Shown here piece after piece: positions 10,300-53,135 of a DNA stretch of 54,425 nt. Both the position numbers and the translations under genes were made by a program. Origin of the DNA: a virus (lineage: Duplodnaviria; Caudoviricetes); the IMG/VR virus record IMGVR_UViG_3300020043_000840, positions 1 to 54,425 of that record; one strand, written 5' to 3'. Within the stretch, counting starts at the first letter, position 1; the number at the start of each line of letters is the position of its first letter. The notes beneath the pieces were generated by a model. The model searched no databases. It saw only the letters and a program-made list of their open reading frames with translations, and was not told where the DNA came from.

Positions 10300-12523
10300 T
10301 CTATACCGTGTAGTTGAAAATCACATACCGGCTGCCGTCATCTCTAACAAAAATAGAGTGAGGTCGTGGCTATATGGATATAATGACCAATATAATGTTG
10401 TTGTTATTTCAAAAACCGGACAGATAGGGCAAATAATAGAAATAGAAGGATTGCTAATTGCTCTTCCTGCTGCACCTGAAAAGTGTCTTCAAAGACACTC
10501 CTCTAAGGCTGAACAATATTGGGAACGTCAAGAACTTCCCCGAGAATTATTTAAAATCCAATCCATATTCCAATGGAATGAAAAGCCAAAAGAATTTAAA
10601 GACCGTTGGGTAGATTATATTGAGCAGGAGTTTGATTACCGAGAACAAGGTTTTTGGTTTATGAACAATGGCGTTAAGACCTACATAACCGGTTCTCATT
10701 ATATGTATTTACAATGGTCAAGCATTGACATAGGATACCCTGACTTTCGTGAAGCAAATAGAATATATTGGATATTTTGGGAAGCCTGTCGTGCTGACCC
10801 AAGGTCATTCGGTATGATATATTTAAAGATTAGACGTTCGGGATTTTCATTTATGTCATCATCTGAGTGTATCAATGTAGCTACGCTTGCACGTGACGCA
10901 CGTATAGGTATTCTATCTAAGACAGGTGCTGATGCTAAAAAAATGTTTACAGACAAGGTTGTGCCTATCAATAGCCGTTTACCTTTCTTTTTTAAACCTG
11001 TGATGGATGGTATGGACAAGCCAAAGACAGAATTGGCGTTTAGAGTTCCTGCATCTAAGATTACCAAGAAGAATATGTATGAGTCTAATGACAATGAAAT
11101 TGACGGATTAGATACATCAATAGATTGGAAAAATACAGAAGACAACTCATATGATGGAGAGAAGTTATTGTTTTTGGCTCACGATGAGTCTGCAAAGTGG
11201 ACTAAGCCTGTAAATATTAAGGAGAATTGGCGTGTAACTAAAACCTGTTTACGTTTAGGTAGTAAAATTATTGGCAAGTGTATGATGGGTTCAACCTCAA
11301 ATGCACTTTCAAAAGGAGGACAAAACTATAAAGACATTTACGAGGACTCAAACGTAAAGGTTCGTAATGCCAACGGACAAACAAAAAGTGGTCTGTATGC
11401 ACTTTTTATTCCGATGGAATGGAATATGGAAGGGTTTATTGATAGATATGGTCATCCTGTATTCAACAAGCCTGCCGAGTCTGTAATGGGCGTGGATGGC
11501 AATTGGATTACAAATGGAGCCATTGACTATTGGGAGGCTGAAGTGGACTCTTTAAAGAATGATGCTGACGCACTAAACGAGTTTTATCGTCAGTTCCCAC
11601 GTACGGAGTCTCACGCATTTAGAGATGAAAGTAAGCAGGCTCTATTTAATTTAACTAAACTATATCAGCAGATTGACTATAATGACTCAATGATTAAGGA
11701 ACATTACCTTACTCGTGGGTCTTTTTCGTGGAAGGATGGGATTAAAGATACTGAAGTGATATGGACTCCTGATACTCGTGGTAGGTTTAATATTGCTTGG
11801 GCACCCCCTAAGCATATGCAGAACAATGTGCATATTCGCAATGGTATTAAATATCCCGGCAATGAGCACATTGGTTCATTTGGTTGTGACTCTTATGATA
11901 TTTCAGCCGTAGTTGGAGGACGTGGTTCTAATGGTGCACTGCACGGTATGACTAAGTTTCATATGGATGACGCTCCTGTTAACCAATTCTTTTTAGAGTA
12001 TATTGCTCGTCCACAAACAGCGGAAATATTTTTTGAAGAAGTTTTAATGGCGTGCGTATTCTATGGAATGCCTATATTAGTAGAGAATAACAAGCCAAGA
12101 CTTTTGTACCATATTAAAAATAGGGGATATAGAGGTTTTTCTATTAATAGACCGGATAAGCAAATGGCTAAGTTAACAAAGACTGAGCGTGAGTTAGGAG
12201 GTATTCCAAACTCATCAGAAGATGTAAAACAAGCACACGCATCTGCTATTGAATCTTATATTGAAAAGTTTGTAGGATTGGATTTGGAAGCAAAATATAG
12301 GGACCCGGAGGAAATGGGGACAATGCCATTTACAAGAACTCTTGAAGATTGGGCACGATTTGATATAAATGATAGAACAAGATTTGATGCTTCTATTAGC
12401 TCAGGATTGTGTATTATGGCTAATCAGAAGCATTTATATATGCCGGAGAAAAAAGAATCAAAATTAATTATTAACTTCGCTAAGTATAAAAACGAAGGAA
12501 CAACAAGTCAATTGATTAGATGA
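10274..12523 (+). CDS. terL: Terminase large subunit
   Basis: Walker A-like KIRRSGFS, Walker B LAHDE, coupling motif GST, nuclease domain FGCD...VENN...FDASI; precedes the portal. Confidence 0.85.
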   Translation: MQKEGQNNSLYRVVENHIPAAVISNKNRVRSWLYGYNDQYNVVVISKTGQIGQIIEIEGLLIALPAAPEKCLQRHSSKAEQYWERQELPRELFKIQSIFQWNEKPKEFKDRWVDYIEQEFDYREQGFWFMNNGVKTYITGSHYMYLQWSSIDIGYPDFREANRIYWIFWEACRADPRSFGMIYLKIRRSGFSFMSSSECINVATLARDARIGILSKTGADAKKMFTDKVVPINSRLPFFFKPVMDGMDKPKTELAFRVPASKITKKNMYESNDNEIDGLDTSIDWKNTEDNSYDGEKLLFLAHDESAKWTKPVNIKENWRVTKTCLRLGSKIIGKCMMGSTSNALSKGGQNYKDIYEDSNVKVRNANGQTKSGLYALFIPMEWNMEGFIDRYGHPVFNKPAESVMGVDGNWITNGAIDYWEAEVDSLKNDADALNEFYRQFPRTESHAFRDESKQALFNLTKLYQQIDYNDSMIKEHYLTRGSFSWKDGIKDTEVIWTPDTRGRFNIAWAPPKHMQNNVHIRNGIKYPGNEHIGSFGCDSYDISAVVGGRGSNGALHGMTKFHMDDAPVNQFFLEYIARPQTAEIFFEEVLMACVFYGMPILVENNKPRLLYHIKNRGYRGFSINRPDKQMAKLTKTERELGGIPNSSEDVKQAHASAIESYIEKFVGLDLEAKYRDPEEMGTMPFTRTLEDWARFDINDRTRFDASISSGLCIMANQKHLYMPEKKESKLIINFAKYKNEGTTSQLIR
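10483..10498. repeat. 16-bp palindromic motif copy (GTGTCTTCAAAGACAC) inside terL
   Basis: Read directly; overlaps codons for KCLQRH. Confidence 0.85.
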
Positions 12524-14955: not shown

Positions 14956-14973
14956 AATGTCGAAATTTTTATC

Positions 14974-14981
14974 TATTTTTG
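14974..14981 (+). promoter_or_regulatory. -7 promoter box TATTTTTG
   Basis: TAnnTTTG, intergenic, 20 nt before the scaffold ATG. Confidence 0.55.
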
Positions 14982-15001
14982 TATAAATTAAATTAAATCA
15001 A

Positions 15002-16093
15002 ATGGAATTAAAAGTTAGAGCCGTAGACATAATTGAACCAAAGAGTGTTCAAGAAGTGGAACAACAATTACTTGACAAGCACGAAGAGTCGTTAAGTCAA
15101 GAAACCAAACAAGAGATTGAACCGGAAATACAAGAACCGGAACAACAGCAAAGTGAGGTTGACTTAAAAGACGAAGATGTTCTTTCGTATATTGGTAAAA
15201 GATACAACAAGCAGATTAATTCATTGGATGAATTAGTGGCTGAGCGTAAAGAAGCTGAGTCATTACCTGAAGATGTAGCTGCTTTTATGAAATATAAGCA
15301 AGATACAGGACGTGGGTTTGAAGACTTTGTTAAATTAGGAAAGGACTTCGAAAAAATGAACCCTGACCAATTGCTTAAAGAATACCTTTCTTCCACACAG
15401 GAAGGTCTTGATGATGATGACATTGAGACGTTAATGGATGAGTATAAGTTTGACCCTGAGTTAGACGATGAATCAACCGTTAAAAAAGCAAAAATCGCAA
15501 AAAAGAAAGTTCTTGCTGAAGCCAAGAAATACTTTAATTCGCAAAAGGAACAATACAAAATGCCACTTGAGTCAAGAATGGGATTCGTTCCGGATGAAGA
15601 AAAAGAAGTATACGAAAGCTATAAGCAATATACCCAACAGGCAAAGACCATAGAAGAGGAAAACAATCGTAAACGTCAATGGTTTGACCAAAAGACGAAT
15701 GATGTTTTTAGCGGAGAGTTCAAAGGTTTTGAGTTCAATGTTAATGACAAGAAGTTCACGTTTGCTCCGGGAGACGCTAATGAGTTAAAAAAGAATCAAG
15801 CTACACCACAAAACTTTATTAATAAGTTTTTAGATGAGCAAGGTTTAATGAAAGACGCAGAAGGCTATCATAGGTCATTGTCTATAGCAATGCATCCTGA
15901 GAAATTTGCTAAGTTTTTTTATGAACAAGGAATGGCTGATGCTACTGATGATGTTACTCGTAAAATCAAGAACATCAATATGTCAGATAGAAAAGCTCCC
16001 GAAGTTAGTAAATCAAACGATGGATTTCAGGTAAAGGCTGTAAACCCTGATTCAGGTAGAAACCTGAAAATACGCAGTATAAAAAAAGTTTAA
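15002..16093 (+). CDS. Putative capsid scaffolding protein
   Basis: Acidic helical 363-aa protein between portal and capsid genes. Confidence 0.6.
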   Translation: MELKVRAVDIIEPKSVQEVEQQLLDKHEESLSQETKQEIEPEIQEPEQQQSEVDLKDEDVLSYIGKRYNKQINSLDELVAERKEAESLPEDVAAFMKYKQDTGRGFEDFVKLGKDFEKMNPDQLLKEYLSSTQEGLDDDDIETLMDEYKFDPELDDESTVKKAKIAKKKVLAEAKKYFNSQKEQYKMPLESRMGFVPDEEKEVYESYKQYTQQAKTIEEENNRKRQWFDQKTNDVFSGEFKGFEFNVNDKKFTFAPGDANELKKNQATPQNFINKFLDEQGLMKDAEGYHRSLSIAMHPEKFAKFFYEQGMADATDDVTRKIKNINMSDRKAPEVSKSNDGFQVKAVNPDSGRNLKIRSIKKV

Positions 16094-16114
16094 AACAATT
16101 AAAAATTTAAAAAA

Positions 16115-17533: not shown

Positions 17534-17547
17534 TAGTTAGTAAATAT

Positions 17548-17583
17548 AGGGGAGGGTGTCTTCAAAGACACTCTCCTTTTTTT
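17548..17583 (+). terminator. Intrinsic terminator built around the 16-bp palindrome (17556-17571)
   Basis: AGGGGAGG-GTGTCTTCAAAGACAC-TCTCC-T7. Confidence 0.8.
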
Positions 17584-17608
17584 AAAATCAAATTAAATTA
17601 AATAAAAA

Positions 17609-41579: not shown

Positions 41580-43025
41580 TTACAATAACGTTTTTTCAAA
41601 GTGCTTTAGTGTGTAGTCTTTTTTCTTTGTGACAGCTTTATAGATGTCGTGTTCAATGCCTCCCTTAGCAAAAATCCAATATACTTGATTCTCTAGCCTT
41701 TCCTTTGTAGTCATTCGGTCTTTGCTCTGCCAATAACTCGTAGCACTAAAGTCTATATTGTAGTAAACCAAGTACTCAGCTTGTTTAAGACTGATTCCCT
41801 CACGTCCACTTACAATTTGTAGAGCTATAGATTTACCGGTGTCTTCAAAGACACTCAACTCTGAGGTTAGGTCATCTCCAAAGACTTGCTTGAGTGCATT
41901 GTATTCTTCTTTAAACTTGTAGAAGATTCCAATTTTACATCCTTCAAACTGCTCTTTGATAAACTCAGCCTTGCTCAAGTCAAGTATCATACTATTCCCA
42001 CTCTCAAATTTAATGGTACCACTGCATAACTGATGCACTTTCATCATCAATTTAACAGGAGTATCTGCCAAAATTATATCTTCTTTTCCTTCTACAACTA
42101 AATCTTTCTTTAATTTTTTAATAATTTTATAAGTAGACTCTTTCATTTCAACCTCAAGTATCTCTTCTGTGGTCTCGGTCATAAACCCTGCCTCTTGTTG
42201 CGTGTAGTTAATTGTGTACGGTTCCATTGCTTTAATGATGGTGTCAAGTCCTCCACTGTAGTCTTTTACAAGCAGCCCGTTAATCTTGCGTTGCTTCACG
42301 TTTACAAACTTATCGCAGAATCTATAGAAGTTTTTAAACTCAGAGAATGGATTGTTTGGTATCGCATAAACCTGATGATACATCTGAGAATAACTCTCAG
42401 GTGTTGGTGTCCCACTAAGTAGTATCACCATTGGTCTATGCTTTTTAATTACCTCTGCAACTAACTCCGCACGTCCACTTGGCTTTGGGAATGCACCCAT
42501 ACTATGAGCCTCATCGCAGATAACTAAATCCCACTTCTTATCGTTCATAACTAGGTGTAGGCTTTCATAATTGATGACAGATAGGGAGTACGTTGGTTTT
42601 AACGCACTGTAGTCGTCTTCAATTGAGCTAATTGCTTTCTTTTTAGTAATGAACAGCACATTTTTTATGCCACACATATCTGCTATACCAAGACTTGTAA
42701 GGGTTTTACCCGTACGAACTTCCATTGCAAGGTATAAGAATCTGTATTTTGAAAGTATCTCATACCCACTATGAATAATGTCAACCTGATAGTCCCTGAA
42801 CTGAAATTTATTTTGTTCCATCTCATATAGGTTTTTATAATACTCGCAACTGCTGACAATCTTATCTATTATATTCGGGTCTGTGTTATACTTAAGTGCT
42901 TCTCTAATCTCAATTGCCTTGCCTCTACCTGACTTAACAGTTTCGGTTTTAAGAACAACTTTTTTTAGAGATTCACAGTAATCCAACATTGCCTTGTTGC
43001 TGTATCCTGAAGTTCTTTCAATCAT
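41580..43025 (-). CDS. SF2 (SNF2-like) helicase
   Basis: FRDYQ, EVRTGKT, DEAH, LSGTP, SGREGISL, YWQSKDR. Confidence 0.9.
   Translation of the reverse strand: MIERTSGYSNKAMLDYCESLKKVVLKTETVKSGRGKAIEIREALKYNTDPNIIDKIVSSCEYYKNLYEMEQNKFQFRDYQVDIIHSGYEILSKYRFLYLAMEVRTGKTLTSLGIADMCGIKNVLFITKKKAISSIEDDYSALKPTYSLSVINYESLHLVMNDKKWDLVICDEAHSMGAFPKPSGRAELVAEVIKKHRPMVILLSGTPTPESYSQMYHQVYAIPNNPFSEFKNFYRFCDKFVNVKQRKINGLLVKDYSGGLDTIIKAMEPYTINYTQQEAGFMTETTEEILEVEMKESTYKIIKKLKKDLVVEGKEDIILADTPVKLMMKVHQLCSGTIKFESGNSMILDLSKAEFIKEQFEGCKIGIFYKFKEEYNALKQVFGDDLTSELSVFEDTGKSIALQIVSGREGISLKQAEYLVYYNIDFSATSYWQSKDRMTTKERLENQVYWIFAKGGIEHDIYKAVTKKKDYTLKHFEKTLL
41839..41854. repeat. 16-bp palindromic motif copy (GTGTCTTCAAAGACAC) inside the helicase gene
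   Basis: Read directly; overlaps codons for SVFEDT on the - strand. Confidence 0.85.
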
Positions 43026-45942: not shown

Positions 45943-45962
45943 TTTCGTCACGCATTAGAGGT

Positions 45963-45989
45963 AAAAAAAGGGAGAGCTTTCACTCCCCC
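45963..45989 (-). terminator. Intrinsic terminator after the SSB-like gene
   Basis: - strand GGGGGAGT-GAAA-GCTCTCCC-T7. Confidence 0.8.
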
Positions 45990-46017
45990 AATTTTTGTTT
46001 CTAAATGGGTGTTAATT

Positions 46018-46344
46018 CTAAAATGGTAATGTACCATCGTCTTCTTCATCTTCAACCGCAGGTTTTGTCTGCTTAGGTTTTGACTGAGGCTTCGCCTCTG
46101 CTTTCTCTGATTGTGGTTTAGCACCACCGCCTTGCGTTGGCTCGTAGGTATCCAACTCAACATAATGATTGCCACTACGTGCAGTCTTAATGTTTAGGTT
46201 TACCCATCCACCTTTCTCGTGCTGTCTGATGAATGCTACCGCTTCATCTACTTTCATTGATAATCTCCCAACTACAAAGTCAGGTGCCTTTTCGTTTCTC
46301 TTAAATGAGAATCCGTCTGCAAAGATTTTTTCGTCTTGTGCCAT
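46018..46344 (-). CDS. Putative single-stranded DNA-binding protein
   Basis: Small beta-rich domain, flexible linker, acidic tail EDEEDDGTLPF; follows the exonuclease and annealing genes. Confidence 0.6.
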   Translation of the reverse strand: MAQDEKIFADGFSFKRNEKAPDFVVGRLSMKVDEAVAFIRQHEKGGWVNLNIKTARSGNHYVELDTYEPTQGGGAKPQSEKAEAKPQSKPKQTKPAVEDEEDDGTLPF

Positions 46345-46363
46345 TGTTCTTGAATTTATTTTT

Positions 46364-46417
46364 GTCCCAATCTATTTAAACTGAATGATAACCTTTGGGA
46401 CTAAGCCAACACTCAGT
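46364..46417 (-). ncRNA. Candidate cis-regulatory H-type pseudoknot in the SSB-like gene leader
   Basis: ACUGAGUGUUGGCUU pairs with AGGUUAUCAUUCAGU (four G-U pairs, one U-U mismatch); loop AGUCCCAA is complementary to downstream UUGGGAC. Confidence 0.55.
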
Positions 46418-46423
46418 ATCGTA

Positions 46424-46439
46424 GTGTCTTTAAAGACAC
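46424..46439. repeat. 16-bp perfect palindrome GTGTCTTTAAAGACAC
   Basis: Read directly; 6 nt after the exonuclease stop. Confidence 0.9.
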
Positions 46440-46445
46440 AATCTT

Positions 46446-47189
46446 TTATAACAAGTACTCGTCAATGTAATAGTTTACAATGTCATCACTTGGTTTAGAG
46501 CTAAAGTATTTATTATATACCTCAATGGCTTTTCCTACCTTAGCTTCGCCACCTTTTACAAAGTCTTCTGTTGGTCTAAAGATACCTAAAACTCCTGTTC
46601 CTTTATCAATTACATAGAAAACTAATGGCTTACCAAATAACTCCTGATAGATATAGCACTGAGAATCGTAGTTATACGACTTAGCACTATACTTAAACTT
46701 GTGTATGTCACTTGTAGTCTTAAGGTCAATCACTGCATTGTCTGTAACAATATCAGCCTTCCCCTTCCACATCATCCCCTGAATCTCTGCAACTGCCGGA
46801 GTCTCGTAAAGATTACCTGCCTTATAAATCTCATCATAGAACGCAATGTTCCCATTGATAATGCTTACAAGGTTTTGAATCTCATCTTGCTCCTTCTTCA
46901 ACATACAAAAAGGTAAATTGTTTTCTTCGCAGAATGCTTTGTACTCTTTCGTATTACGTGTACTCACATCTACTGAGGGCATAACCTTCGCCTTTTCAGG
47001 CTCCAAGATTAATTGGTGAAAGTATCTGCCATCCATAAATGCTTTGTTGTCTTCTCTAGTCTTACCAAAGTCTTGAGGATTATTAAGCAATACTCCTATG
47101 TCTGAATTGGATAGGTATTGTTTCCCAATACCATTATAATACTCGTTGTCATTCCTGAGCAACGTTATGATTTCTAATTCCTCTGCCAT
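46446..47189 (-). CDS. RecE-like PD-(D/E)XK exonuclease (DUF3799-like)
   Basis: LSNSD, G..FH..ILEP, KGKAD...IDLKTT, Y..Q.YIY. Confidence 0.8.
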   Translation of the reverse strand: MAEELEIITLLRNDNEYYNGIGKQYLSNSDIGVLLNNPQDFGKTREDNKAFMDGRYFHQLILEPEKAKVMPSVDVSTRNTKEYKAFCEENNLPFCMLKKEQDEIQNLVSIINGNIAFYDEIYKAGNLYETPAVAEIQGMMWKGKADIVTDNAVIDLKTTSDIHKFKYSAKSYNYDSQCYIYQELFGKPLVFYVIDKGTGVLGIFRPTEDFVKGGEAKVGKAIEVYNKYFSSKPSDDIVNYYIDEYLL

Positions 47190-47191
47190 TA

Positions 47192-47836
47192 TTATGCGTT
47201 TATAATGTTAGCGATTTCTTTCTTTAATGCAGGACTTACTTTGTACTTACGTACCAACTGAGCACCAATCTTCTCAATACCCAAAGACTTGTTAGCCGTT
47301 ACGTATTTTACAACCGCATCCCAATTCTCTGTACCTTTTTTTAAGTCGACTAATTCTTCTGCTGTTGTAGGTACTACCTTCTTAGTAGCCTCAACTTTTG
47401 TAGCTGTAGTCTCTCCCTCAGGTAAATCTTCTCCTGCATAAATATAAATCCCCAACCCAAACATCGCTAAGTTCTTAACTAAGCAACGCATAATTGTTTT
47501 GTTAATGTCGAATGTTGTAGCTCCTTCCACTTGCTTGTCTCCATAGCGTGTGCTGTAGCTATATGCTGTCTTCTTCATTGACTTGTTCGCACCATCCATT
47601 ACGGGCAACCACATCTCAAGCGTCTCGCCTTCGATAGTTACGGTAGTGTGACACATAAATCCAAGAGCATCGTCATACTCTGTCTCTAAGATTTTGTACG
47701 TAGCATCAGGGCAGGCTCTCTTTGTTTCGCTCCAAGCCCAAGCCCAAGATAAATAGGTTAGATTACTTTTCTTTTCAACGTGGTCGTTCACGTTAATGGC
47801 AGATAGCCTCTCGAAAACTGTTTGTTTGTTTTCCAT
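47192..47836 (-). CDS. Sak-type (DUF1071) single-strand annealing protein
   Basis: NVNDHVEKK..LTYLSWAWAW, LPVMD, RCLVK.LAMFGLG.YIYAGEDLP. Confidence 0.85.
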   Translation of the reverse strand: MENKQTVFERLSAINVNDHVEKKSNLTYLSWAWAWSETKRACPDATYKILETEYDDALGFMCHTTVTIEGETLEMWLPVMDGANKSMKKTAYSYSTRYGDKQVEGATTFDINKTIMRCLVKNLAMFGLGIYIYAGEDLPEGETTATKVEATKKVVPTTAEELVDLKKGTENWDAVVKYVTANKSLGIEKIGAQLVRKYKVSPALKKEIANIINA

Positions 47837-47870
47837 TTGATTAGATTTGATTGATTACTGATTGACTTGA

Positions 47871-48173
47871 TTAGATAAATACCGCTCTCTCCACATCCTT
47901 GACAATAGACACATAGTCTTTGTCTTCTGCTATCTTCTGCTCAACTGCAGTGATGCCGTGGATGATTGAGGAGTGCTTAATATCGTACCCTGCTTCGTTC
48001 ATATACTTTTGAATATAGGTAACTTGCATAGGTCTCTTTGAACATAGGTAGTAAACAAGGTGCCTTGCATCTACGAACTCCCTCTTCTTTGATTTTGAGA
48101 ATATATCCTCCTTATTTATATTAAATAGGTCTGCAACTCTCTCTACATACTGATTAAAAACATCGTGCTTCAT
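47871..48173 (-). CDS. DnaA C-terminal (domain IV)-like HTH protein
   Basis: VADLFNI...IFSKSKKREFVDARHLVYYLC...HSSIIHG; ATG 48173 preferred over the track start at 48197, which overlaps a promoter box. Confidence 0.7.
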   Translation of the reverse strand: MKHDVFNQYVERVADLFNINKEDIFSKSKKREFVDARHLVYYLCSKRPMQVTYIQKYMNEAGYDIKHSSIIHGITAVEQKIAEDKDYVSIVKDVERAVFI

Positions 48174-48194
48174 AACTTCAATTTGATTATACAA

Positions 48195-48202
48195 CAAATG
48201 TA
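48195..48202 (-). promoter_or_regulatory. -7 promoter box TACATTTG
   Basis: TAnnTTTG on the - strand, 21 nt before ATG 48173. Confidence 0.55.
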
Positions 48203-48227
48203 CTGAAAATGTTCATACATTGTTCAT

Positions 48228-48470
48228 TTATTTGTTAATATTTTTTAAAAACAACCATCCTTCTGCTTCATCCAATGAGATACTTTTAAATCCCTCATCC
48301 ACCATAAACTGACCTGACTTCAATCCTTGAATGATATGACCGCCAATGTACTGAACTACATCTGTGCAGTCTTTGTGCAGTATTTCATCAGGATTCTTTT
48401 CAAGATATGCATCTCTTCCTATAAATCTTCCTGTGCTACTAAATTCTTCTAGTGTTGTGTTGATTTTCAT
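48228..48470 (-). CDS. Hypothetical protein
   Basis: 80-aa ORF with ATCAAATG start. Confidence 0.65.
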   Translation of the reverse strand: MKINTTLEEFSSTGRFIGRDAYLEKNPDEILHKDCTDVVQYIGGHIIQGLKSGQFMVDEGFKSISLDEAEGWLFLKNINK

Positions 48471-48524
48471 TTGATAAAAGTTTATGGGAGCACAAGGCTC
48501 CCGTTGATTTGATTAAATTCCGTA

Positions 48525-48532
48525 CAAAGATA
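48525..48532 (-). promoter_or_regulatory. -7 promoter box TATCTTTG, with a leader hairpin at 48486-48502
   Basis: TAnnTTTG on the - strand, TTG 19 nt upstream; downstream hairpin GGGAGC-cttgt-GCTCCC. Confidence 0.6.
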
Positions 48533-48539
48533 GTTCAAT

Positions 48540-48737
48540 TTATTTATAAAACAATAGGTCTGTATATTTTACATAGACGAAACCATCGTGGATGATTTTG
48601 TCTGCGTTGTCCCAAGACTCTTTTGTAATTATGTGTCCCTCAGGAAAGTTTGGATTGGATTCCAACTCCTGAATTAATGAAGACGTCTGTTCTTGCAACA
48701 TCCTCAGTCTGTCTATTAGTGTTTCTTGCTTATCCAT
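48540..48737 (-). CDS. Hypothetical protein
   Basis: 65-aa ORF overlapping the upstream gene. Confidence 0.6.
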   Translation of the reverse strand: MDKQETLIDRLRMLQEQTSSLIQELESNPNFPEGHIITKESWDNADKIIHDGFVYVKYTDLLFYK

Positions 48738-49128
48738 AAACTACCTCCCCCATTGTTAAGTATTGGAAAACTATATCAGCGGAACCCGCATCTCCGTGTC
48801 CTCTCATATGATTTTCTAATGCCCATTTGTTTTCTTTGCTGTCTGATAATAATTGTAAACGTGCCTGCATAGTACCACGTGTGATTACTCCAATAACCTC
48901 TTCTTCGTTTTCTGCGTCATTGATAGCCACCTTTACATCGTGGTCTAATATTGCTTTAAGGATTGCTGTACTTAGGTACGGGTCTTCGCTCTTAGGAACC
49001 GCCTTCCTTATCTTTGCAACTGATTCATCAGGCAAGTAATACCAATAGTTACTACCGCCCTCTAGTGCTGTTACGAAAATGTCTTCTAAGACTTGTCGCT
49101 CTACTCCTTGAATGATTTTGATTTCCAT
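48730..49128 (-). CDS. Hypothetical early-type phage protein
   Basis: 132 aa, TALEGG.NYW...DA..ADIVFQ...GEVVYG. Confidence 0.7.
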   Translation of the reverse strand: MEIKIIQGVERQVLEDIFVTALEGGSNYWYYLPDESVAKIRKAVPKSEDPYLSTAILKAILDHDVKVAINDAENEEEVIGVITRGTMQARLQLLSDSKENKWALENHMRGHGDAGSADIVFQYLTMGEVVYG

Positions 49129-49129
49129 T

Positions 49130-49351
49130 TTATTTGATTTGATTGTTAGTTAAATATTGACACACCTCATCATAAATCTCATCATACTCGTATTGAATGA
49201 TGCCGTTGTAAACCATTACACCTCTCTTCTCTACCATAGTTACAACTCCCGTATTCTCATACTTCTTGTCGATGATTAGAGCTGTTAACTCCGATGCCAA
49301 TTCGTTCATATAGAACGTAGCCTTTGGCGTAGCATTGATTACATTTTCCAT
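49130..49351 (-). CDS. Hypothetical protein
   Basis: 73 aa, AATCAAATG leader. Confidence 0.65.
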   Translation of the reverse strand: MENVINATPKATFYMNELASELTALIIDKKYENTGVVTMVEKRGVMVYNGIIQYEYDEIYDEVCQYLTNNQIK

Positions 49352-49371
49352 TTGATTATTTGATTTGATTG

Positions 49372-49701
49372 TTATTGATTTTCATAAGGTCTGTACCATA
49401 ATTTGATTTCTAAATCGTCACACGTATCGTCAATGGCTAAAAAGATTTGCTCTGTCGTAGCCTCGTTGGTCATTGCTCTCTCAAGTATATTGTAGGCTAC
49501 ATCTTTACTACAATCGTAGTTCTGCAGAACATCGTCAATGCTCCATAGATTATCAACGAAGTACCCTTTACTCCTTAGCAACGCACGTGCTGTCGCCTCA
49601 TCGTTTAATTTTTCTTTTAATCGCTTCACTTCATCTCGAAGGAAGTCGATTTCCAAGTTAGCACTTGCCACTTGACTCATCTCGTAGTGATTTTTTTGCA
49701 T
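49372..49701 (-). CDS. Hypothetical protein
   Basis: 109-aa ORF, LWSIDDV motif. Confidence 0.65.
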   Translation of the reverse strand: MQKNHYEMSQVASANLEIDFLRDEVKRLKEKLNDEATARALLRSKGYFVDNLWSIDDVLQNYDCSKDVAYNILERAMTNEATTEQIFLAIDDTCDDLEIKLWYRPYENQ

Positions 49702-49814
49702 AAAAATTTGATTAAGATTACTAAAAGTATTGCCGTGAAAACTAACATAGCCAATGGCACCGATATAAATATATAATATAGAATGCCTAATAAAAAGTTA
49801 AAACTTTGTCTCAT
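49677..49814 (-). CDS. Small membrane peptide (45 aa)
   Basis: MRQSFNFLLGILYYIFISVPLAMLVFTAILLVILIKFLCKK...; ATG 4 nt after the upstream stop. Confidence 0.55.
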   Translation of the reverse strand: MRQSFNFLLGILYYIFISVPLAMLVFTAILLVILIKFLCKKITTR

Positions 49815-49818
49815 AGGT

Positions 49819-50043
49819 TTAGAATGATATGGTTTCAAAATTATAATACAATACAATTGTAGCCTTGGGGTGCTTACTTTGTAATGCTGAGATATAATCC
49901 TCATTGTCATACAATATCTCATTCTCCCTTTCGTAGTCTACCATAGGCTGAATGATTTTTCTTACTTGTTCTTCGCTTAGTGAAGTCATCAGGTAGAAGT
50001 CTTCTTCTCCCCAAGCACTCGTGTTGATTTTAAATACTTGCAT
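49819..50043 (-). CDS. Hypothetical protein downstream of hammerhead 1 (74 aa)
   Basis: ATG 50043 (MQVFKINT...); the longer track ORF only reads through the ribozyme. Confidence 0.7.
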   Translation of the reverse strand: MQVFKINTSAWGEEDFYLMTSLSEEQVRKIIQPMVDYERENEILYDNEDYISALQSKHPKATIVLYYNFETISF

Positions 50044-50063
50044 CTTTGTGGTTTGATTAAATT

Positions 50064-50115
50064 TCCGTTTCATCCTTTCGGACTCATCAGTCGGGATAAC
50101 ACATCCCGATACGGA
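50064..50115 (-). ncRNA. Type III hammerhead ribozyme 1
   Basis: UCCGU-A / UCGGGAU-GUGUU-AUCCCGA / CUGAUGA / GUCC-GAAA-GGAU / GAA-ACGGA; predicted cut after GUA (50110|50109). Confidence 0.93.
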
Positions 50116-50120
50116 GGATA

Positions 50121-50136
50121 GTGTCTTTAAAGACAC
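50121..50136. repeat. 16-bp perfect palindrome, extended by flanking pairs to about 50115-50143
   Basis: - strand AGGGTA-GTGTCTTTAAAGACAC-TATCCT. Confidence 0.9.
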
Positions 50137-50150
50137 TACCCTAAGTGGGA

Positions 50151-51269
50151 CTAAGGTCTAAATCTTAAAACCTCAGTCTCAGTGAACCACTCATCGCAAC
50201 CACTACAATGATAATTTGCGAACGCATCGTGCTCTAAATCGTGAAAGCAATTTACACATATAGGTTTCTCATCCTCTATGTTGAAGTCGCAATCGTCACA
50301 CTCATCGTCCAATATGTCTAACAAGCATACGCTCTTGGGCTCATCATATCCCATTTGGGAAAATATGCTTTGATACTTTTCGCTTTCTCTCTTGTCCTCC
50401 TTCTCCCAATAACTCAATGGTCTTGTGTCCTGAGTGTAGGTGCTGTGATGCTGTTTGCCATCTGCCTTTTCACGTATGTTAAAGTATACCCAACACTTAA
50501 GCACTCCGGTCTTGGTCTTTATGTCAATCTGCTTCCTTCTGTACCAATCAGGGTGACCCTCCAATCTATCAAGGTTTGCCAATACACTGCTACTCACTTT
50601 GAATATGTCCACCTCCACGTGATGACCTTGTCCACTCTTCTCAATCAAGTAAGGCAATCCACTAATGACAAGCGGATACTTTTTCTTTGTCGTTCCTTTA
50701 GATATAAATTTGGATGCACTCAAGTAACTATGATAGTTACTATACCCTTTCTTTAACGTGCCATACACTGCAATTAAATTGTCCTCAAGCACATTGTCTT
50801 TGCTGTACCATACGCCATCTCTCTGACTCCACAACTCTTTGTTGTAGATTTGGTATGTCCTGCTGTGCGTGTTAACTGACACGAACCTGCACTCGTACTG
50901 CTCCAACTCCTTCTTCCACTTGTGGCGTGGTATATCTCCTAGATTCTCTGCTAGTACCTTTGAGTCACTCTTCTTGACGTTACCAAGGTTTCTAATTGTT
51001 CCGTTCATCATAAGCCATTCCTGTTTGTTGTTCCCGCATCTGAACGGATGCGTATTTTCTTTATTGATAGCACCAATGGTAGCGTATCTAAAGTGAGCAA
51101 TGAATGGTCTCTCTGTGTCAAGTACTTTGTACTCTGATGACTTGTGATATGTTACCTCAAAGGTATCTAACCACACAACCCCCAACCCGTGAGGATTGAT
51201 TCGTGCTGAAGTCTTTGCAACTTCCTGAGGGACTTTCTTCCCCTTCTGCTTGATAATGATTACACACAT
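50151..51269 (-). CDS. Class II glutamine amidotransferase fused to gamma-glutamylcyclotransferase and a C-terminal Zn-ribbon
   Basis: N-terminal MC, NPHGLG, HFRYAT.G...NTHPF, NG, SDS; AVYGTLKKG...LDRLEG; CxxC...CxxC. Confidence 0.85.
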   Translation of the reverse strand: MCVIIIKQKGKKVPQEVAKTSARINPHGLGVVWLDTFEVTYHKSSEYKVLDTERPFIAHFRYATIGAINKENTHPFRCGNNKQEWLMMNGTIRNLGNVKKSDSKVLAENLGDIPRHKWKKELEQYECRFVSVNTHSRTYQIYNKELWSQRDGVWYSKDNVLEDNLIAVYGTLKKGYSNYHSYLSASKFISKGTTKKKYPLVISGLPYLIEKSGQGHHVEVDIFKVSSSVLANLDRLEGHPDWYRRKQIDIKTKTGVLKCWVYFNIREKADGKQHHSTYTQDTRPLSYWEKEDKRESEKYQSIFSQMGYDEPKSVCLLDILDDECDDCDFNIEDEKPICVNCFHDLEHDAFANYHCSGCDEWFTETEVLRFRP

Positions 51270-51291
51270 AAGCTAAATTGATTTGTGGGCA

Positions 51292-51307
51292 ATGTCTTTG
51301 AAGACAT
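51292..51307. repeat. Palindrome variant ATGTCTTTGAAGACAT between promoter and GATase start
   Basis: Read directly. Confidence 0.8.
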
Positions 51308-51335
51308 AGAACCCGATTAATGAACTGATAATGAA

Positions 51336-51367
51336 CAAAGATACGACATAAATTAGACATCTCCAAA
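51336..51367 (-). promoter_or_regulatory. Complete Bacteroidota sigma-A-type promoter TTTG-N20-TATCTTTG
   Basis: Both -33 and -7 elements with canonical spacing, upstream of GATase-GGCT. Confidence 0.75.
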
Positions 51368-51368
51368 T

Positions 51369-51527
51369 TTATTTTTTGATTGCCTTGAATTTTGCACGCT
51401 CCAAATAAGGATGTTCTCCTATAAATTTGTAGAACGTTTTGTCGATAGCCTCCCACTTTGTGTGGGCGACTACTGACAGCACAAAAGTTTTCTCGTAGTA
51501 AACTTTAAAAAAATACTGATTCTCCAT
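51369..51527 (-). CDS. Hypothetical 52-aa protein (not in ORF track)
   Basis: MENQYFFKVYYEKTFVLSVVAHTKWEAIDK...; AAATCAAATCAAAATG leader. Confidence 0.65.
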   Translation of the reverse strand: MENQYFFKVYYEKTFVLSVVAHTKWEAIDKTFYKFIGEHPYLERAKFKAIKK

Positions 51528-51545
51528 TTTGATTTGATTTAAGAT

Positions 51546-51836
51546 TTAATAATCATCCTCCAATCTCTCACCTGCATACGACTCATCGAAGTATCTATCC
51601 TTACGATATGGATACTTGTCACTATCGTAGCACTTGTCACACCAATCTCCCGTTCCGTATCCGTACGCATCGCATCTGCTTTCTACGAACTCCTTTGTGT
51701 CCTTAGTTCCACACTCTCTACATCTTGGTAGATTCTCGTGGCATCTCTCACAAAGGTTATCCTCGAACCACATATCGTGGCGTCCTTGTGGGTGCCCACA
51801 TAGTGAGCACTCCCAAACATCATTTGCTTTTGTCAT
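51546..51836 (-). CDS. Cys-rich zinc-finger-like protein
   Basis: Four CxxC pairs in 96 aa. Confidence 0.7.
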   Translation of the reverse strand: MTKANDVWECSLCGHPQGRHDMWFEDNLCERCHENLPRCRECGTKDTKEFVESRCDAYGYGTGDWCDKCYDSDKYPYRKDRYFDESYAGERLEDDY

Positions 51837-52042
51837 TACTTGGATTTTTTTACGTGATAGATTCTGATTCCGTCTTTTATCTTTACGTCAATGGGATACA
51901 ACTCCTCAAGGATTGAAAGATAATCTTTGTAGTTTTTCAACTCTGCCTTAGGCAAGTACAACAACCTATCAATGATAGGCTGTAGGATTTCGTTACGCTC
52001 TCTCACCTCTTGTTCGGGTGCGAATTGTTTTTGCTTTGTCAT
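51836..52042 (-). CDS. Hypothetical protein downstream of hammerhead 2 (68 aa)
   Basis: ATG 52042 (MTKQKQF...) with AAATCAAATCAAGATG leader. Confidence 0.7.
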   Translation of the reverse strand: MTKQKQFAPEQEVRERNEILQPIIDRLLYLPKAELKNYKDYLSILEELYPIDVKIKDGIRIYHVKKSK

Positions 52043-52063
52043 CTTGATTTGATTTAAGTGGTT

Positions 52064-52115
52064 TCCGTTTCGTCCTTTTGGACTCATCAGCCTAAGCGAT
52101 ACACTCAGGGACGGA
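52064..52115 (-). ncRNA. Type III hammerhead ribozyme 2
   Basis: UCCGU-C / CCUGAG-UGUAUCG-CUUAGG / CUGAUGA / GUCC-AAAA-GGAC / GAA-ACGGA; predicted cut after GUC (52110|52109). Confidence 0.95.
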
Positions 52116-52131
52116 GTGTCTTTAAAGACAC
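52116..52131. repeat. 16-bp perfect palindrome GTGTCTTTAAAGACAC abutting hammerhead 2
   Basis: Read directly. Confidence 0.9.
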
Positions 52132-52140
52132 CCCCACTTG

Positions 52141-52716
52141 TTAAGCTATGCAATAACTCTCATTTAAGATTCTCACTGCACTATCTACGTCCTCAGGTCG
52201 AACAACTAAAAAGAAGTTAGGGCAATACATCCCTTCGGTATCTGACTCCATCCTTCTTGTTGGTATCCCTGACACGTTAAGCATTGCCTCCACCGGCTCA
52301 AGGCTTACCTCCATAATTGTATGGAACACCGCATAGATTGGTTTGCTGTATCCCTCACTCCTTATCCACTCGCTCGTTAAGTCGAACTCAGGCTCCTGCA
52401 CATTCTCCTCAGGGATTGAGACATCAACACCACGTGAAAAACTATCAACGTGAACCCAACTGCCATCCCATTCCACCTCATTCAAGTACCACTTACCACG
52501 TCTCTGAATAATATGAACGCTAGATAATCCATTGAGCCTCTCTTTTGTAGTTGAGCTATCCCATCCCGCATTTGTTATCCATAGCCCATCCCTCCTGATT
52601 TCAGCTATCTTGTTACCGAATAGCCATAGGCTCTCGCCATTTGTACGGCTGTTGCCGATTGTAAGTGAACGGCTGTTCTGAAAAGCGTTCACAATGTCTC
52701 TTGTGATTTTTCTCAT
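52141..52716 (-). CDS. Hypothetical early-type phage protein
   Basis: 191 aa, L.GNKIA...ITNAGW...TTKERLNGL. Confidence 0.75.
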   Translation of the reverse strand: MRKITRDIVNAFQNSRSLTIGNSRTNGESLWLFGNKIAEIRRDGLWITNAGWDSSTTKERLNGLSSVHIIQRRGKWYLNEVEWDGSWVHVDSFSRGVDVSIPEENVQEPEFDLTSEWIRSEGYSKPIYAVFHTIMEVSLEPVEAMLNVSGIPTRRMESDTEGMYCPNFFLVVRPEDVDSAVRILNESYCIA

Positions 52717-52829
52717 TTGATTTGATTTTTAGGTGCCTCGCTCTCTCTGAAGTCTTTGATACATTGGTATGCAAAGAAAACAGCGAAAGCAATTGTGCAA
52801 GTGAATGCAAAAATGTAATTAATGCTCAT
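52713..52829 (-). CDS. Small membrane peptide (38 aa, not in ORF track)
   Basis: MSINYIFAFTCTIAFAVFFAYQCIKDFRESEAPKNQIK*; ATGA overlap with the next gene. Confidence 0.55.
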   Translation of the reverse strand: MSINYIFAFTCTIAFAVFFAYQCIKDFRESEAPKNQIK

Positions 52830-52848
52830 TGTCAATTGATTGTAGTGG

Positions 52849-53043
52849 TTACTTAATAATTTTCTTTAACTCACCCTCGATAACTATCATAGATACAGCA
52901 AGGGATAAAACTAATAACACCCAAACACCTAGGAAAGCCCCCATTGAGGAACTACCCTTAGATAGTAAATTGATTCCCGCAATTTGTACTAATAAGCATA
53001 AGCCTAAAGTGATTCCGATTTTTGTGATGATTCTCTTTTTCAT
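52849..53043 (-). CDS. Two-TM membrane peptide downstream of hammerhead 3 (64 aa)
   Basis: ATG 53043 (MKKRIITKIGITLGLCLLV...) with AAATCAAATCAAATG leader. Confidence 0.7.
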   Translation of the reverse strand: MKKRIITKIGITLGLCLLVQIAGINLLSKGSSSMGAFLGVWVLLVLSLAVSMIVIEGELKKIIK

Positions 53044-53064
53044 TTGATTTGATTTTTGTGGTTT

Positions 53065-53115
53065 ACTGTTTCGTTCTTTTGAACTCATCAGGAGGAGCAC
53101 TCACTCCCCGACAGT
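53065..53115 (-). ncRNA. Type III hammerhead ribozyme 3
   Basis: ACUGU-C / GGGGAG-UGAGUG-CUCCUC / CUGAUGA / GUUC-AAAA-GAAC / GAA-ACAGU; predicted cut after GUC (53110|53109). Confidence 0.95.
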
Positions 53116-53119
53116 GGGA

Positions 53120-53135
53120 GTGTCTTTAAAGACAC
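53120..53135. repeat. 16-bp perfect palindrome GTGTCTTTAAAGACAC
   Basis: - strand GGGG-GTGTCTTTAAAGACAC-TCCC. Confidence 0.9.

Follow-up and report, generated by a model that had tools for sequence, protein, structure and literature searches.

A recurrent 16-bp palindrome associated with putative hammerhead ribozymes, a capsid-gene terminator and an orphan early gene in a phage genome

Palindrome copies between and within genes

The 54,425-bp record IMGVR_UViG_3300020043_000840, which was scanned in its entirety and is referred to here as the window, belongs to a large clade of uncultured phages from freshwater, the hosts of which are likely Bacteroidota; the nearest cultured kin is Elemovirus, for which a name search of the literature returned surveys only. 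The sequence GTGTCTTYAAAGACAC occurs exactly at eight sites in these 54,425 bp (12 match rows, because perfect copies match both strands), compared with 0.00 in 100 dinucleotide shuffles. Copies at 10483, 17556, 32170 and 41839 carry a TTCAAA centre on the plus strand, and those at 46424, 50121, 52116 and 53120 have the TTTAAA centre of a perfect palindrome. Allowing up to three mismatches added only a variant at 51292, giving nine sites against 0.31 expected and a shuffle maximum of 2. The scan of the whole record called for in a preliminary description, which had counted at least nine copies by eye, thus confirms that count as eight exact sites plus one variant, none expected by chance, and because only the 51292 site was added at this tolerance the count is complete for this record. 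Relatives of 63 kb have about 9 kb and one more copy that are missing from it.

Each of the four perfect copies follows the stop codon of a minus-strand gene at a distance of 6 to 14 nt: 46424-46439 falls 6 nt past the stop of an exonuclease gene (46446-47189), 50121-50136 falls 14 nt past that of an amidotransferase/GGACT gene (50151-51269), and 52116-52131 and 53120-53135 follow the stops of the genes at 52141-52716 and 53147-53776 by 9 and 11 nt, respectively. The variant copy (51292-51307, minus strand), which has a symmetric pair of substitutions at its two outermost positions (G1 to A, C16 to T), is located 22 nt upstream of the amidotransferase gene ATG, and relatives have a perfect copy in the same slot. 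It had been described as sitting between a full promoter and its gene, as an operator would, but the promoter does not hold up: it is a 9-of-12 sigma-70 match on the plus strand (51250-51279), antisense to all the local genes and falling within the opening codons of the amidotransferase gene, and matches of that grade number 19 in the window versus 22 in shuffles.

Three copies fall inside genes and, as first described, in three codon phases (offset 2 in terL, 0 in the giant gene and 1 in the helicase gene). The copy at 10483-10498 (plus strand) encodes part of a variable linker of the large terminase (KCLQRH) and is present in 7 of 33 unique terL sequences, while that at 32170-32185 (plus strand), in the gene of a 3113-aa virion protein, is present in two of three unique sequences, too few to judge; the relative L003 has a copy in the equivalent slot with flanks that are the reverse complement of those in the window. 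The minus-strand copy at 41839-41854, in the gene of the SNF2-type helicase (residues SVFEDT), starts with the middle base of a Ser codon and could be evaluated by codon choice. Its residues are kept in just 46-48 of 65 unique sequences, yet where they are kept the codons are AGT in 44 of 46 cases for Ser, GTC in 39 of 48 for Val and GAC in 44 of 46 for Asp. This check of synonymous sites, which the preliminary description had proposed, indicates that synonymous codons are selected while the amino acids vary; judged by codon choice, the helicase copy is under nucleotide-level selection. Among relatives, copies also occur inside the primase gene and in linker-coding DNA.

Hammerhead ribozymes, clamp hairpins and the capsid-gene terminator

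The earlier inspection overlooked the context of the minus-arm copies, which are part of hairpin-plus-hammerhead cassettes: of the four perfect copies, three are the immediate 5' neighbours of type III hammerhead ribozymes (Rfam RF00008), all on the minus strand. The copy at 53120 forms the tip of a longer RNA hairpin (~53116-53139, with a 10-bp stem in the fold) adjoining the hammerhead at 53063-53117 (43.5 bits, E 3e-6; 74.4 bits with a clade model), in which the CUGAUGA and GAAA core and the GUC cleavage site are intact. The 52116 copy is likewise the tip of a clamp hairpin before the hammerhead at 52062-52117 (40.4 bits, E 2.2e-5; clade model 65.7 bits), and the 50121 copy tips a 12-bp hairpin preceding the hammerhead at 50062-50117 (40.9 bits, E 1.7e-5; clade model 65.9 bits), which has a GUA cleavage site. 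The copy at 46424 is followed by the conserved hairpin-pseudoknot leader of the next gene instead of a ribozyme. The three scores (43.5, 40.9 and 40.4 bits) do not reach the Rfam RF00008 gathering score of 48.5; a short loop 2 lowers them. All three elements have CUGAUGA, GAAA and a GUC or GUA site, in columns that are invariant across 43 clade copies. In an alignment of copies chosen by a finder that itself required pairing, with stems I and II loop-closed and stem III open, 641 of 641 cells were paired, 12 of 16 pairs had changed on both sides and the covariation score was 0.692 versus 0.22 in shuffles. By core and covariation, the window elements are putative type III hammerheads for which self-cleavage is predicted.

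A covariance model identified 71 hammerheads in 80 related loci, 2 of them in motif-free loci, and one more in cultured Elemovirus; these matches in motif-free loci overturned the impression given by a strict finder (48 hits) that hammerheads are limited to motif-positive genomes. A hairpin abuts stem III in 74 of 74 hammerheads, with the palindrome core in 56 and GC-rich stems of unrelated sequence in the other 18, which makes the clamp role a generic one. The placing of a clamp hairpin against each hammerhead is a fixed design of the clade, and the cassettes are clearly paralogous. The ribozyme at 50062-50117 matches, over 47-48 nt at 89.6% identity, intergenic DNA of 51 Pseudomonas phage records, the group that also contains the PaP3 phage hammerhead (PMC3088659). 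That paper, on type III hammerheads next to phage and prophage genes, reports several hammerheads between the genes of one phage operon and proposes that they cut long transcripts into gene-length mRNAs (Perreault et al. 2011). Compared with the hammerheads described there, those of the present clade have a hairpin against stem III throughout and usually the invariant 16-mer at its tip, and the 16-mer is also found far from any ribozyme, a coupling not described in the available portion of PMC3088659.

The plus-strand copy at 17556-17571 occupies the tip of an intrinsic terminator after the capsid gene (17549-17583), which starts 16 nt past the capsid stop and in which GGGGAGG pairs with UCUCC at the base, giving a 14-pair stem (-20.2 kcal/mol, z -5.2) followed by seven U. 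Although it is absent from the output of a simple consensus terminator scan, the element is, by stem and U-run, an intrinsic (factor-independent) terminator. In relatives, a hairpin and U-run follow the capsid gene in 74 of 74 loci examined; the palindrome is at the tip in 26, and other lineages have related, covarying tips such as GTGTAC paired with GTACAC.

Early mRNA of phage T7 carries intercistronic hairpins processed by RNase III. The present arrangement resembles it in having repeated structured elements at early polycistronic junctions and a hairpin left on the 3' end of the upstream message. Cleavage here would, unlike in T7, proceed by ribozyme or tRNA processing, RNase III being unlikely because a 6-12 bp stem is too short, and T7 sites are not known to lie inside genes or upstream of the promoter, where the palindrome does occur.

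Motif geometry, distribution and the first early gene

We found 337 relatives and examined 80 related IMG/VR loci. The pattern GTGTC-N6-GACAC occurs 205 times in these loci, compared with one occurrence with N5 and two with N7. Of 108 unique intergenic copies with at most one mismatch, 88 are perfect, and the outer 5 bp account for only three changes, none of them compensated; the arms are thus nearly invariant and do not covary. In L047 the stem letters are conserved and the loop varies, and in MW202828 a symmetric switch from T6/A11 to G6/C11 is present in 14 of 14 copies, an allele also carried by a second lineage (L322). The motif is all-or-none by genome: it is present in 53 of 80 loci and wholly lacking, coding copies included, in 27, with 9-11 copies in each of five relatives (four rated 100% complete, one 67%; reversed-pattern control 0) and none in four complete relatives, one more having a single odd copy. 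Mapped on a primase tree, motif state requires 11 changes, at least eight of these on well-supported branches.

Outside the clade, a scan of bacterial genomes gave, among at least 120 matches listed, single matches and two phage-like contigs from Cytophagales and Flavobacteriaceae genome bins. REP/REPIN-type repeats have many host-chromosome copies and a RAYT transposase; the window proteins that were scanned include no transposase. Neither a copy nor another repeated palindrome occurs in the cultured Flavobacterium phage MT497078, which is therefore an unsuitable test bed for the site. A text search of the papers available to us, with several spellings, did not find the motif. T7 primase also recognizes GTGTC, a match we judged coincidental, since the window encodes a primase of another type.

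One copy lies in the control region, 190-260 nt upstream of the first early gene. In two relatives (G001 and G005) it follows GC-rich iterons and precedes by ~190 nt a Bacteroidota-type promoter, TTTG-N19-TATATTTG; given this position upstream of the early promoter, the control-region copy is probably not transcribed. Its centres show no strand bias (CA 3, TG 2, TA 3).

The first early gene is represented in the window by its 3' part (54041-54424, minus strand; 127 codons, cut by the end of the record), and its product, which has 215 residues in a complete relative, is an orphan protein with a helix-turn-helix-like helix pair. We regard it as the candidate binder of the palindrome. Of the rows with data, all 26 motif-positive ones have the gene and none of the 10 motif-negative ones does, and the independent contrasts (four on supported branches, six on all branches) are all concordant, although the comparison is underpowered (sign test p 0.125) and block inheritance could mimic a functional link, since the gene belongs to the same early module as most copies. 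A profile search of five further records found the gene in none, which is uninformative because four are 56-73% fragments and the fifth, a 107-kb phage, is unrelated and matches the motif only once.

In an AlphaFold model of the protein (pLDDT 82), helices 79-87 and 91-101 span the invariant stretch KVFGWQKSFFYKVVKA and are followed by an acidic linker and a small C-terminal domain. Searches of Pfam, PHROGs and Foldseek (PDB, E 0.001 or better) returned nothing, and no Pfam family, that of the ParB N-terminal (ParBc/CTPase) domain included, was found in a full-length ortholog at E up to 1. The best structural Z in a wide VIA-align search was 5.8; against the DNA-binding domains of KorB and Spo0J (1r71, 1vz0) it was 4.7 over 97-99 residues (rmsd 3.7-3.9), which is within the stated noise range for helical proteins. 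A protein atlas matched the candidate only to unnamed viral clusters, the nearest named cluster, DUF3102 at 0.91, being a lead at most, and dimer prediction gave 0.41 against a mark of 0.42. At the candidate recognition helix, WQKS is invariant in 14 orthologs of the T6/A11 type and is replaced in the two G6/C11 lineages by LSKS or LSKA; IEKS, however, stands at this position in G015, a distant ortholog of the T6/A11 type, so the argument is not diagnostic. Of the DnaA-like proteins, which had been put forward for binding tests, the DnaA-C-like one encoded at 47871-48197 (Pfam match) occurs in 13 of 13 motif-free loci examined, evidence against its being the specific binder. Amidoligase-like, Kyano_Gp96-like and amidotransferase proteins were also considered and rejected, as they merely track the motif-positive lineage.

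Possible readers of the palindrome

The broad proposal of the preliminary description, that the motif is bound by a dimeric DNA-binding protein or is an RNA hairpin recognized by a protein, fits the invariant arms, strict spacing, nucleotide-level selection, concerted symmetric change and co-occurrence with a helix-turn-helix-like early gene; its promoter at 51292 does not survive, and the evidence counts against the DnaA-C-like protein as the specific binder. Our preferred reading, to which we assign a probability of roughly 45%, is that the 16-mer may be a multi-copy DNA site for the candidate first-early-gene protein, located where palindromes are tolerated. The two 5-bp half-sites, GTGTC and GACAC, exactly 6 bp apart and hence one helical turn centre to centre, would be read by a lineage-specific phage factor, most likely a dimer of the first early gene product, which most likely binds double-stranded DNA. 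The roughly ten sites per genome are densest in the early operon and beside the iteron-bearing control region upstream of the first gene. Because the genome is compact, sites would sit where a palindrome is harmless or reusable: in short spacers just past stop codons, in stretches of the terL, helicase and giant-protein genes that encode linkers, and at the tips of pre-existing RNA hairpins, namely the capsid intrinsic terminator and the hammerhead clamps at early-gene junctions. That the first-gene product is the binder, that DNA and not RNA is bound, and what binding does are points that we infer; as to the last, our guess would be KorB-like global control of the early operon or a polymerase roadblock just past a finished cistron.

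KorB operators (OB) of the IncP plasmid RK2 and parS sites are palindromes of 13-16 bp, about ten per replicon, some within genes, some beside promoters and some ~100-200 bp upstream, and the gene for the helix-turn-helix dimer lies beside a site, near the origin region. The palindrome family shows this pattern, being multi-copy, in part gene-internal and clustered towards the candidate gene and origin region: there are 9-11 copies, gene-internal copies are conserved, one copy lies 190-260 nt upstream of the candidate gene, and iterons adjoin it in G001 and G005. The candidate differs from KorB and ParB in having no Pfam-detectable ParB N-terminal domain, with a structural likeness (Z 4.7) within noise, and the replicon here is a lytic-type podophage. 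Many sites here, unlike parS or OB, double as RNA hairpin tips in hammerhead clamps and the terminator, a double use that to our knowledge has not been described for either.

Some of the evidence would be explained more directly by an RNA-binding reader, namely a phage or host protein recognizing a 6-bp stem and 4-nt loop at cistron ends, which could serve as a 3'-end cap after hammerhead or RNase P cleavage or as a gate on termination, on cleavage or on translation downstream; analogous cases are the SLBP-bound stem-loop of histone mRNA and Csy4-type hairpin recognition. At 43 unique ribozyme-linked copies, stem extensions of ~4 bp contain 100 Watson-Crick pairs, 48 G.U, 3 A.C and 21 other mismatches, and since the G.U excess over A.C is usable by the sense transcript only, an RNA hairpin forms at these copies. 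The palindrome also tips a true intrinsic terminator; 79 of 119 unique non-coding copies lie 0-20 nt past a called stop codon; predicted cleavage leaves a 5-13 nt tail 3' of the hairpin in 33 of 35 cases; and the sense-strand centre of non-coding copies is TTCAAA in 77 cases versus TTTGAA in 13, a bias much of which may come from shared ancestry. A tRNA gene passing the Rfam threshold begins 4-5 nt after a copy in L006 (at 790) and L008 (at 9291). By a T-arm regular expression, tRNA-like sequence follows 17 copies; ARAGORN placed only 1 of 11 tRNAs within 40 nt 3' of a copy, and 2 tRNAs in eight loci reached the Rfam gathering score. Eight or nine consecutive early genes of MW202828 are separated by a stop codon, 2-3 nt, the palindrome and an A/C-rich leader of 16-23 nt, and the stretches between those genes contain no promoter-like motif. 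The sequencing runs listed for window positions 46000-54000 comprise 20 of DNA and 0 of RNA. Against recognition in RNA, a conserved stem with a variable loop, as in L047, is the reverse of what most hairpin-binding proteins prefer, one copy lies upstream of the early promoter, and no role in RNA is apparent for the conserved copies within helicase, terL, primase and linker-coding DNA. Bare copies, moreover, lack the stem extension and fold weakly (~-6.6 kcal/mol, z -0.4 to -1.8), single changes within the 16-mer that keep a wobble pair show no sense excess (5 on the sense strand versus 6 antisense-only), and the co-occurring candidate is predicted to resemble a helix-turn-helix protein. We hold RNA recognition to be unlikely, if well worth retaining. 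That a single phage protein recognizes the 16-mer in both forms, double-stranded DNA and RNA hairpin tip, seems distinctly unlikely to us; if so, occupancy would couple transcription control to RNA fate, gating hammerhead self-cleavage and capsid termination or protecting cleaved 3' ends, and the hairpin-plus-ribozyme cassettes would be regulated rather than constitutive mRNA punctuation.

The generic clamp at every hammerhead, 18 of unrelated sequence, the paralogy of the cassettes and the covarying terminator tips of other lineages could be accounted for with no trans-acting factor, the copies being structural hairpins (insulators, clamps or terminator stems) that owe their identity to cassette duplication and gene conversion. 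This is improbable, as it leaves unexplained the invariance of the arms without covariation over more than 200 copies, the codon-level selection in the helicase gene, the terL and primase gene copies, the strict N6 spacing, the genome-wide allele switch and the loss of all copies, coding ones too, in 27 of 80 loci. Copies also bracket single small genes in an early region that is mosaic (many window early ORFs are present in only 2-21 of 31 motif-positive loci), and the repeated changes of motif state on the primase tree suggest module exchange, so that the repeats might be boundaries of exchangeable gene cassettes that promote modular shuffling. T4-type phages contain promoter-stem-loop cassettes (PeSL) for which such shuffling has been proposed. 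The likeness lies in near-identical short stem-loop repeats between small early genes of a mosaic region; unlike PeSL, the palindrome has no promoter attached, occurs in essential genes and the late terminator, where it brackets no cassette, and is under strict sequence selection on its arms. Sixteen bases are very short for homologous exchange, and shuffling requires neither strong purifying selection on the arms nor strict spacing, which makes a boundary role very improbable. Finally, coliphage N4 uses hairpin promoters for its virion RNA polymerase, with a template-strand hairpin upstream of the start site, and the giant virion protein gene together with the position of copies 15-23 nt ahead of many early genes would accommodate promoters of this type, the 3113-aa protein acting as the virion-delivered polymerase. 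However, Pfam, PHROGs and PDB sequence searches detected no polymerase domain in either the 3113-aa or the 1470-aa protein, the G.U extensions place the hairpin on the sense strand or RNA instead of the template strand, hammerheads require read-through transcription of the palindrome, and a host-type early promoter lies upstream of the operon in G001 and G005; hairpin promoters are already disfavoured and can be given hardly any credence.

Hammerheads are common between phage genes. In this clade, clamp hairpins, sites inside genes, a late terminator and a promoter-distal control region are all linked by one invariant palindrome to a single orphan early protein. Should that protein bind the site, as in the DNA-site reading that we favour, the result would be a compact global regulatory or genome-organizing system in a lytic-type phage and a natural counterpart of the ribozyme-plus-hairpin insulators of synthetic biology; if the site acts in RNA, bacterial viruses would have an analogue of the sequence-specific hairpins at mRNA 3' ends. 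In both cases, the 16-mer and its 215-residue protein provide a precise probe for a phage group without genetics.

Distribution and conservation of the palindrome

An exact scan of the window recovered GTGTCTTYAAAGACAC with a TTCAAA centre on the + strand at 10483, 17556, 32170 and 41839, and GTGTCTTYAAAGACAC as a perfect palindrome at 46424, 50121, 52116 and 53120, against 0.00 exact 16-mer matches expected from shuffles. Permitting three mismatches added one variant site at 51292, giving nine sites versus 0.31 expected. The preliminary description had put the number at nine or more, with three coding copies in three different phases; its count and coordinates are correct, and a reading-frame check reproduced the phases. 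The window spans the entire 54,425-bp record. Its plus arm (about 1-38514, + strand) carries the terminase, portal, capsid, tail and giant virion genes, and the convergent minus arm (- strand) the recombination, primase, helicase and small early genes. The perfect copies all lie 6-14 nt past the stop codon of the upstream gene, and the 51292 variant lies 22 nt ahead of the ATG of an amidotransferase/GGACT gene. A "full promoter" reported beside this variant did not hold up: the sequence fits sigma-70 at 9 of 12 positions, but on the antisense strand and within the first codons of that gene, and matches of that grade are not enriched (19 versus 22 in shuffles).

The closest GenBank record, the uncultured podophage MW202828.1 (60.8 kb; primase 76.8% identical), contains neither the standard-allele motif nor a hammerhead ribozyme; in its early arm, however, GTGTCGTTAACGACAC, a form of the palindrome altered symmetrically at positions 6 and 11, is present as 14 identical copies. 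From 337 primase relatives in IMG/VR we retained 80 loci (79-97% identical), in which GTGTC-N6-GACAC occurs 205 times and 27 of which are motif-free. Five relatives of 63-65 kb, four of them rated complete, have 9-11 copies genome-wide, occupying the window's slots plus one more, and a reversed-pattern control scored 0 in the same five. Four complete motif-free relatives have no copy and a fifth relative a single odd one; the cultured Flavobacterium phage MT497078 (Elemovirus) likewise has none. Presence or absence of the motif requires 11 switches on an 81-row primase tree, at least eight falling on well-supported branches. Among the matches listed, bacterial genomes gave scattered single hits, and two phage-like contigs were binned with Cytophagales and Flavobacteriaceae.

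Arm spacing across the 80 loci is fixed at N6 (205, versus one N5 and two N7); N4 was found 28 times, chiefly at a single conserved position within the primase coding sequence. Of 108 unique intergenic copies with at most one mismatch, 88 are perfect, and the outer five pairs show only 3 changes, none of them compensated. The sole known compensated change, T6/A11 to G6/C11, is genome-wide where found (14/14 copies in MW202828); it recurs in one further locus (L322), and the four copies of another (L321) belong to the MW202828 lineage. At the helicase copy (65 unique sequences), Ser is encoded by AGT in 44/46 cases, Val by GTC in 39/48, although GTC is the rarest Val codon elsewhere, Glu by GAA in 39/46 and Asp by GAC in 44/46. 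The residues themselves are retained in only 46-48 of the 65 sequences; the palindrome is thus imposed on the protein. In terL the copy falls within a variable linker and occurs in 7/33 unique sequences, and the giant-gene copy is kept in 2/3, too few comparators to judge. Separately, residues 1351-1537 of the 3113-residue giant virion protein (29173-38514, +) resemble Tas1 (PDB 6ox6, E 2.3e-5), a RelA/SpoT-like (p)ppApp synthetase effector, and may form an ejected enzyme domain.

Relatives also carry a copy 190-260 nt upstream of the first early gene. In two of these genomes (G001 and G005) it sits directly 3' of GC-rich iterons, with a TTTG-N19-TATATTTG promoter following about 190 nt downstream, and is probably untranscribed; the centres of control-region copies show no strand bias. 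The 16-mer's letters and spacing are under selection everywhere, coding DNA and probably untranscribed spacer included. The iterons of this divergent region, TTGCGCCCC four times in G005 (L296, G005:64300-64500) and ATTGCCTG three times in G001 (L288:3250-3300), may mark an origin and early control region, just short of which the window stops. Over its last ~125 nt (L288:3300-3424), the IMG/VR contig of G001 repeats part of its own first early gene in reverse-complement orientation; the probable cause is an assembly artefact of the fold-back type.

Hammerhead ribozymes, terminators and other RNA elements

On the minus strand, a type III hammerhead ribozyme (Rfam; 53117-53063, 52117-52062 and 50117-50062, all -) comes within 1-4 nt after three of the four perfect copies, which the preliminary description had overlooked. 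With E values of 3e-6 to 2e-5, the scores of 40.4-43.5 bits fall short of Rfam's gathering score (48.5), although core and cleavage triplet are intact. On folding, the 16-mer forms the tip (6 bp and a 4-nt loop) of 10-12-bp hairpins immediately ahead of ribozyme stem III. At the four flanking positions of 43 unique ribozyme-linked copies we counted 100 Watson-Crick pairs, 48 G.U, 3 A.C and 21 other mismatches, a G.U-bearing pairing usable by the sense transcript only; the same count revealed no stem extension beyond the 16-mer in other copy classes.

A covariance model trained on 43 clade hammerheads finds three in the window and one in Elemovirus; the 80 loci yield 71, every one on the sense strand and two within motif-free loci. 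In the training set, which was picked for pairing, the 16 helix pairs are paired in 641/641 cells, with double changes in 12 of the pairs. A hairpin adjoins stem III in 74/74 hammerheads, with the palindrome core in 56 and an unrelated GC-rich hairpin in 18, and predicted cleavage would leave a 5-13 nt tail past the hairpin in 33/35 cases. Over 47-48 nt, one window hammerhead matches intergenic DNA of PaP3-like Pseudomonas phages at 89.6% identity. Hammerheads flanking phage genes are already a known class (PMC3088659), of which those in the window are ordinary members. The Elemovirus hammerhead (Flavobacterium phage vB_FspP_elemoE_10-3D, L283:28913-28966, -; 42.9 bits, E 1.9e-8 with the clade model), at the head of the early region, offers a culturable system for hairpin-plus-hammerhead cassettes. 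AAGUGG 5' of the 52116 hairpin (52132-52140, -) can pair with CCACUU just past the hammerhead (52062-52068); both segments are conserved in relatives, and the pairing would enclose the entire cassette and could tether both cleavage products or compete with ribozyme folding.

The hairpin that has the 17556 copy as its tip comprises 14 pairs (-20.2 kcal/mol, z -5.2); together with the seven U behind it, it makes an intrinsic terminator downstream of the capsid gene, ordinary of its kind. Relatives share this build, their first flanking pair being G.U, and hairpin and U-run occur in 74/74 capsid terminators examined, the tip being the palindrome in 26 and other or degenerate in the rest. Since both hammerhead clamps and capsid terminators exist without palindrome tips, these hairpins are present irrespective of the palindrome. 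Transcribed copies are often built into functional RNA hairpins, which has to be squared with the selection on letters and spacing seen outside transcripts as well. Of the non-coding copies, 79 of 119 unique cases lie 0-20 nt past a called stop. The sense-strand centre of non-coding copies is TTCAAA in 77 and TTTGAA in 13, a bias of little weight because copies share ancestry and the ratio at the capsid terminator is only 13 to 4, plus 5 TA.

Downstream of the 46424 copy lies a conserved element of another kind. Within 46345-46420 (-), the loop of a conserved hairpin base-pairs with sequence further downstream to give a pseudoknot; the segments involved covary from one relative to another, motif-free loci carry the element too, and it has no Rfam match. 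It precedes the gene after the exonuclease (46018-46344, -), whose 108-residue product has an acidic SSB-like tail with DDGTLPF at its end, and resembles an autoregulatory leader of the T4 gene 32 type. After this SSB-like gene lies another intrinsic-terminator-like hairpin with a U-run (45970-45989, -), whose GGGGGAG/CUCUCCC base resembles that of the capsid terminator and whose tip differs. Relatives have tRNA genes with long insertions (L006:790-898, L008:9291-9382 and L001:523-630; 46 nt in MW202828), two of which begin 4-5 nt past a palindrome copy; many other tRNA-like stretches after copies fail both ARAGORN and the Rfam threshold.

A candidate reader and a possible function of the palindrome

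When gene content was compared between six motif-positive and six motif-free genomes, the first gene of the early operon was present in four complete relatives and MW202828, with its 3' part in the window (54041-54424, -), and in none of the motif-free genomes. An amidoligase-like ORF with the same pattern was set aside as a member of an enzyme set. A 12-ortholog profile found the first early gene in 5/5 further positive and 0/5 further negative genomes, and in 0/5 additional records that are fragments or unrelated; with locus-level presences included, it occurs in 26/26 positive and 0/10 negative rows. Independent contrasts of gene and motif number four on supported branches (six on all) and are all concordant, but the sign test reaches no better than p 0.125.

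The product, 215 residues in G001, belongs to no Pfam or PHROG family. Its predicted structure (pLDDT 82) is a helical one: helices 79-87 and 91-101 cover an invariant stretch, from which an acidic linker leads to a small C-terminal domain of beta-beta-alpha type. Fold searches with this model gave no identification, KorB-operator and Spo0J chains reaching only the noise level (Z 4.7). The invariant WQKS with which the second helix opens gives way to other residues in both G6/C11 lineages, and also in one distant T6/A11 genome, so covariation of helix and allele is not diagnostic. Among the early genes, what look like an amidoligase-type ORF (53147-54019, -; two frames split by a stop) and a fusion of class II glutamine amidotransferase with GGACT cyclotransferase (50151-51269, -) track motif-positive lineages; such a gene set is familiar from phage peptide-modification systems.

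We favor, at a probability of 0.45, the view that a lineage-specific protein uses the 16-mer as its multi-copy site and that this protein is most likely the first early gene product, bound to DNA as a dimer, as this explains most with least. The main rival, in which the reader binds the RNA hairpin and influences 3' ends, cleavage, termination or translation, accords with the sense-only flank pairing and has to accommodate coding and probably untranscribed copies; we consider it unlikely, if a serious contender. The remaining explanations fit less well than either. Purely structural hairpins, improbable to our minds, would suit the ribozyme and terminator stems, which also form around other tips, but would not account for outer pairs conserved without compensated changes. 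Boundaries of cassette exchange, more doubtful still, would suit copies between genes better than those within them, and N4-like hairpin promoters, which strike us as very improbable, would need the hairpin on the template strand, whereas the G.U-bearing extensions place it on the sense strand.

The 16-mer has no match in the literature searched, nor are three features described there: an invariant palindrome common to ribozyme clamps, a late terminator, gene-internal sites and a control region; a clamp hairpin at every hammerhead of a clade; and the palindrome's link to an orphan early protein. As a putative multi-copy protein-recognition palindrome it belongs to a known type, and its distribution, similar to that of KorB or ParB sites, recalls these systems in what binding might do. 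In so tightly packed a genome, copies would have settled where the palindrome is harmless or reusable, namely in gene-end spacers, in linker-coding stretches and at the tips of hairpins needed anyway, and those just past stop codons would suit a roadblock that halts polymerase once the cistron is completed.
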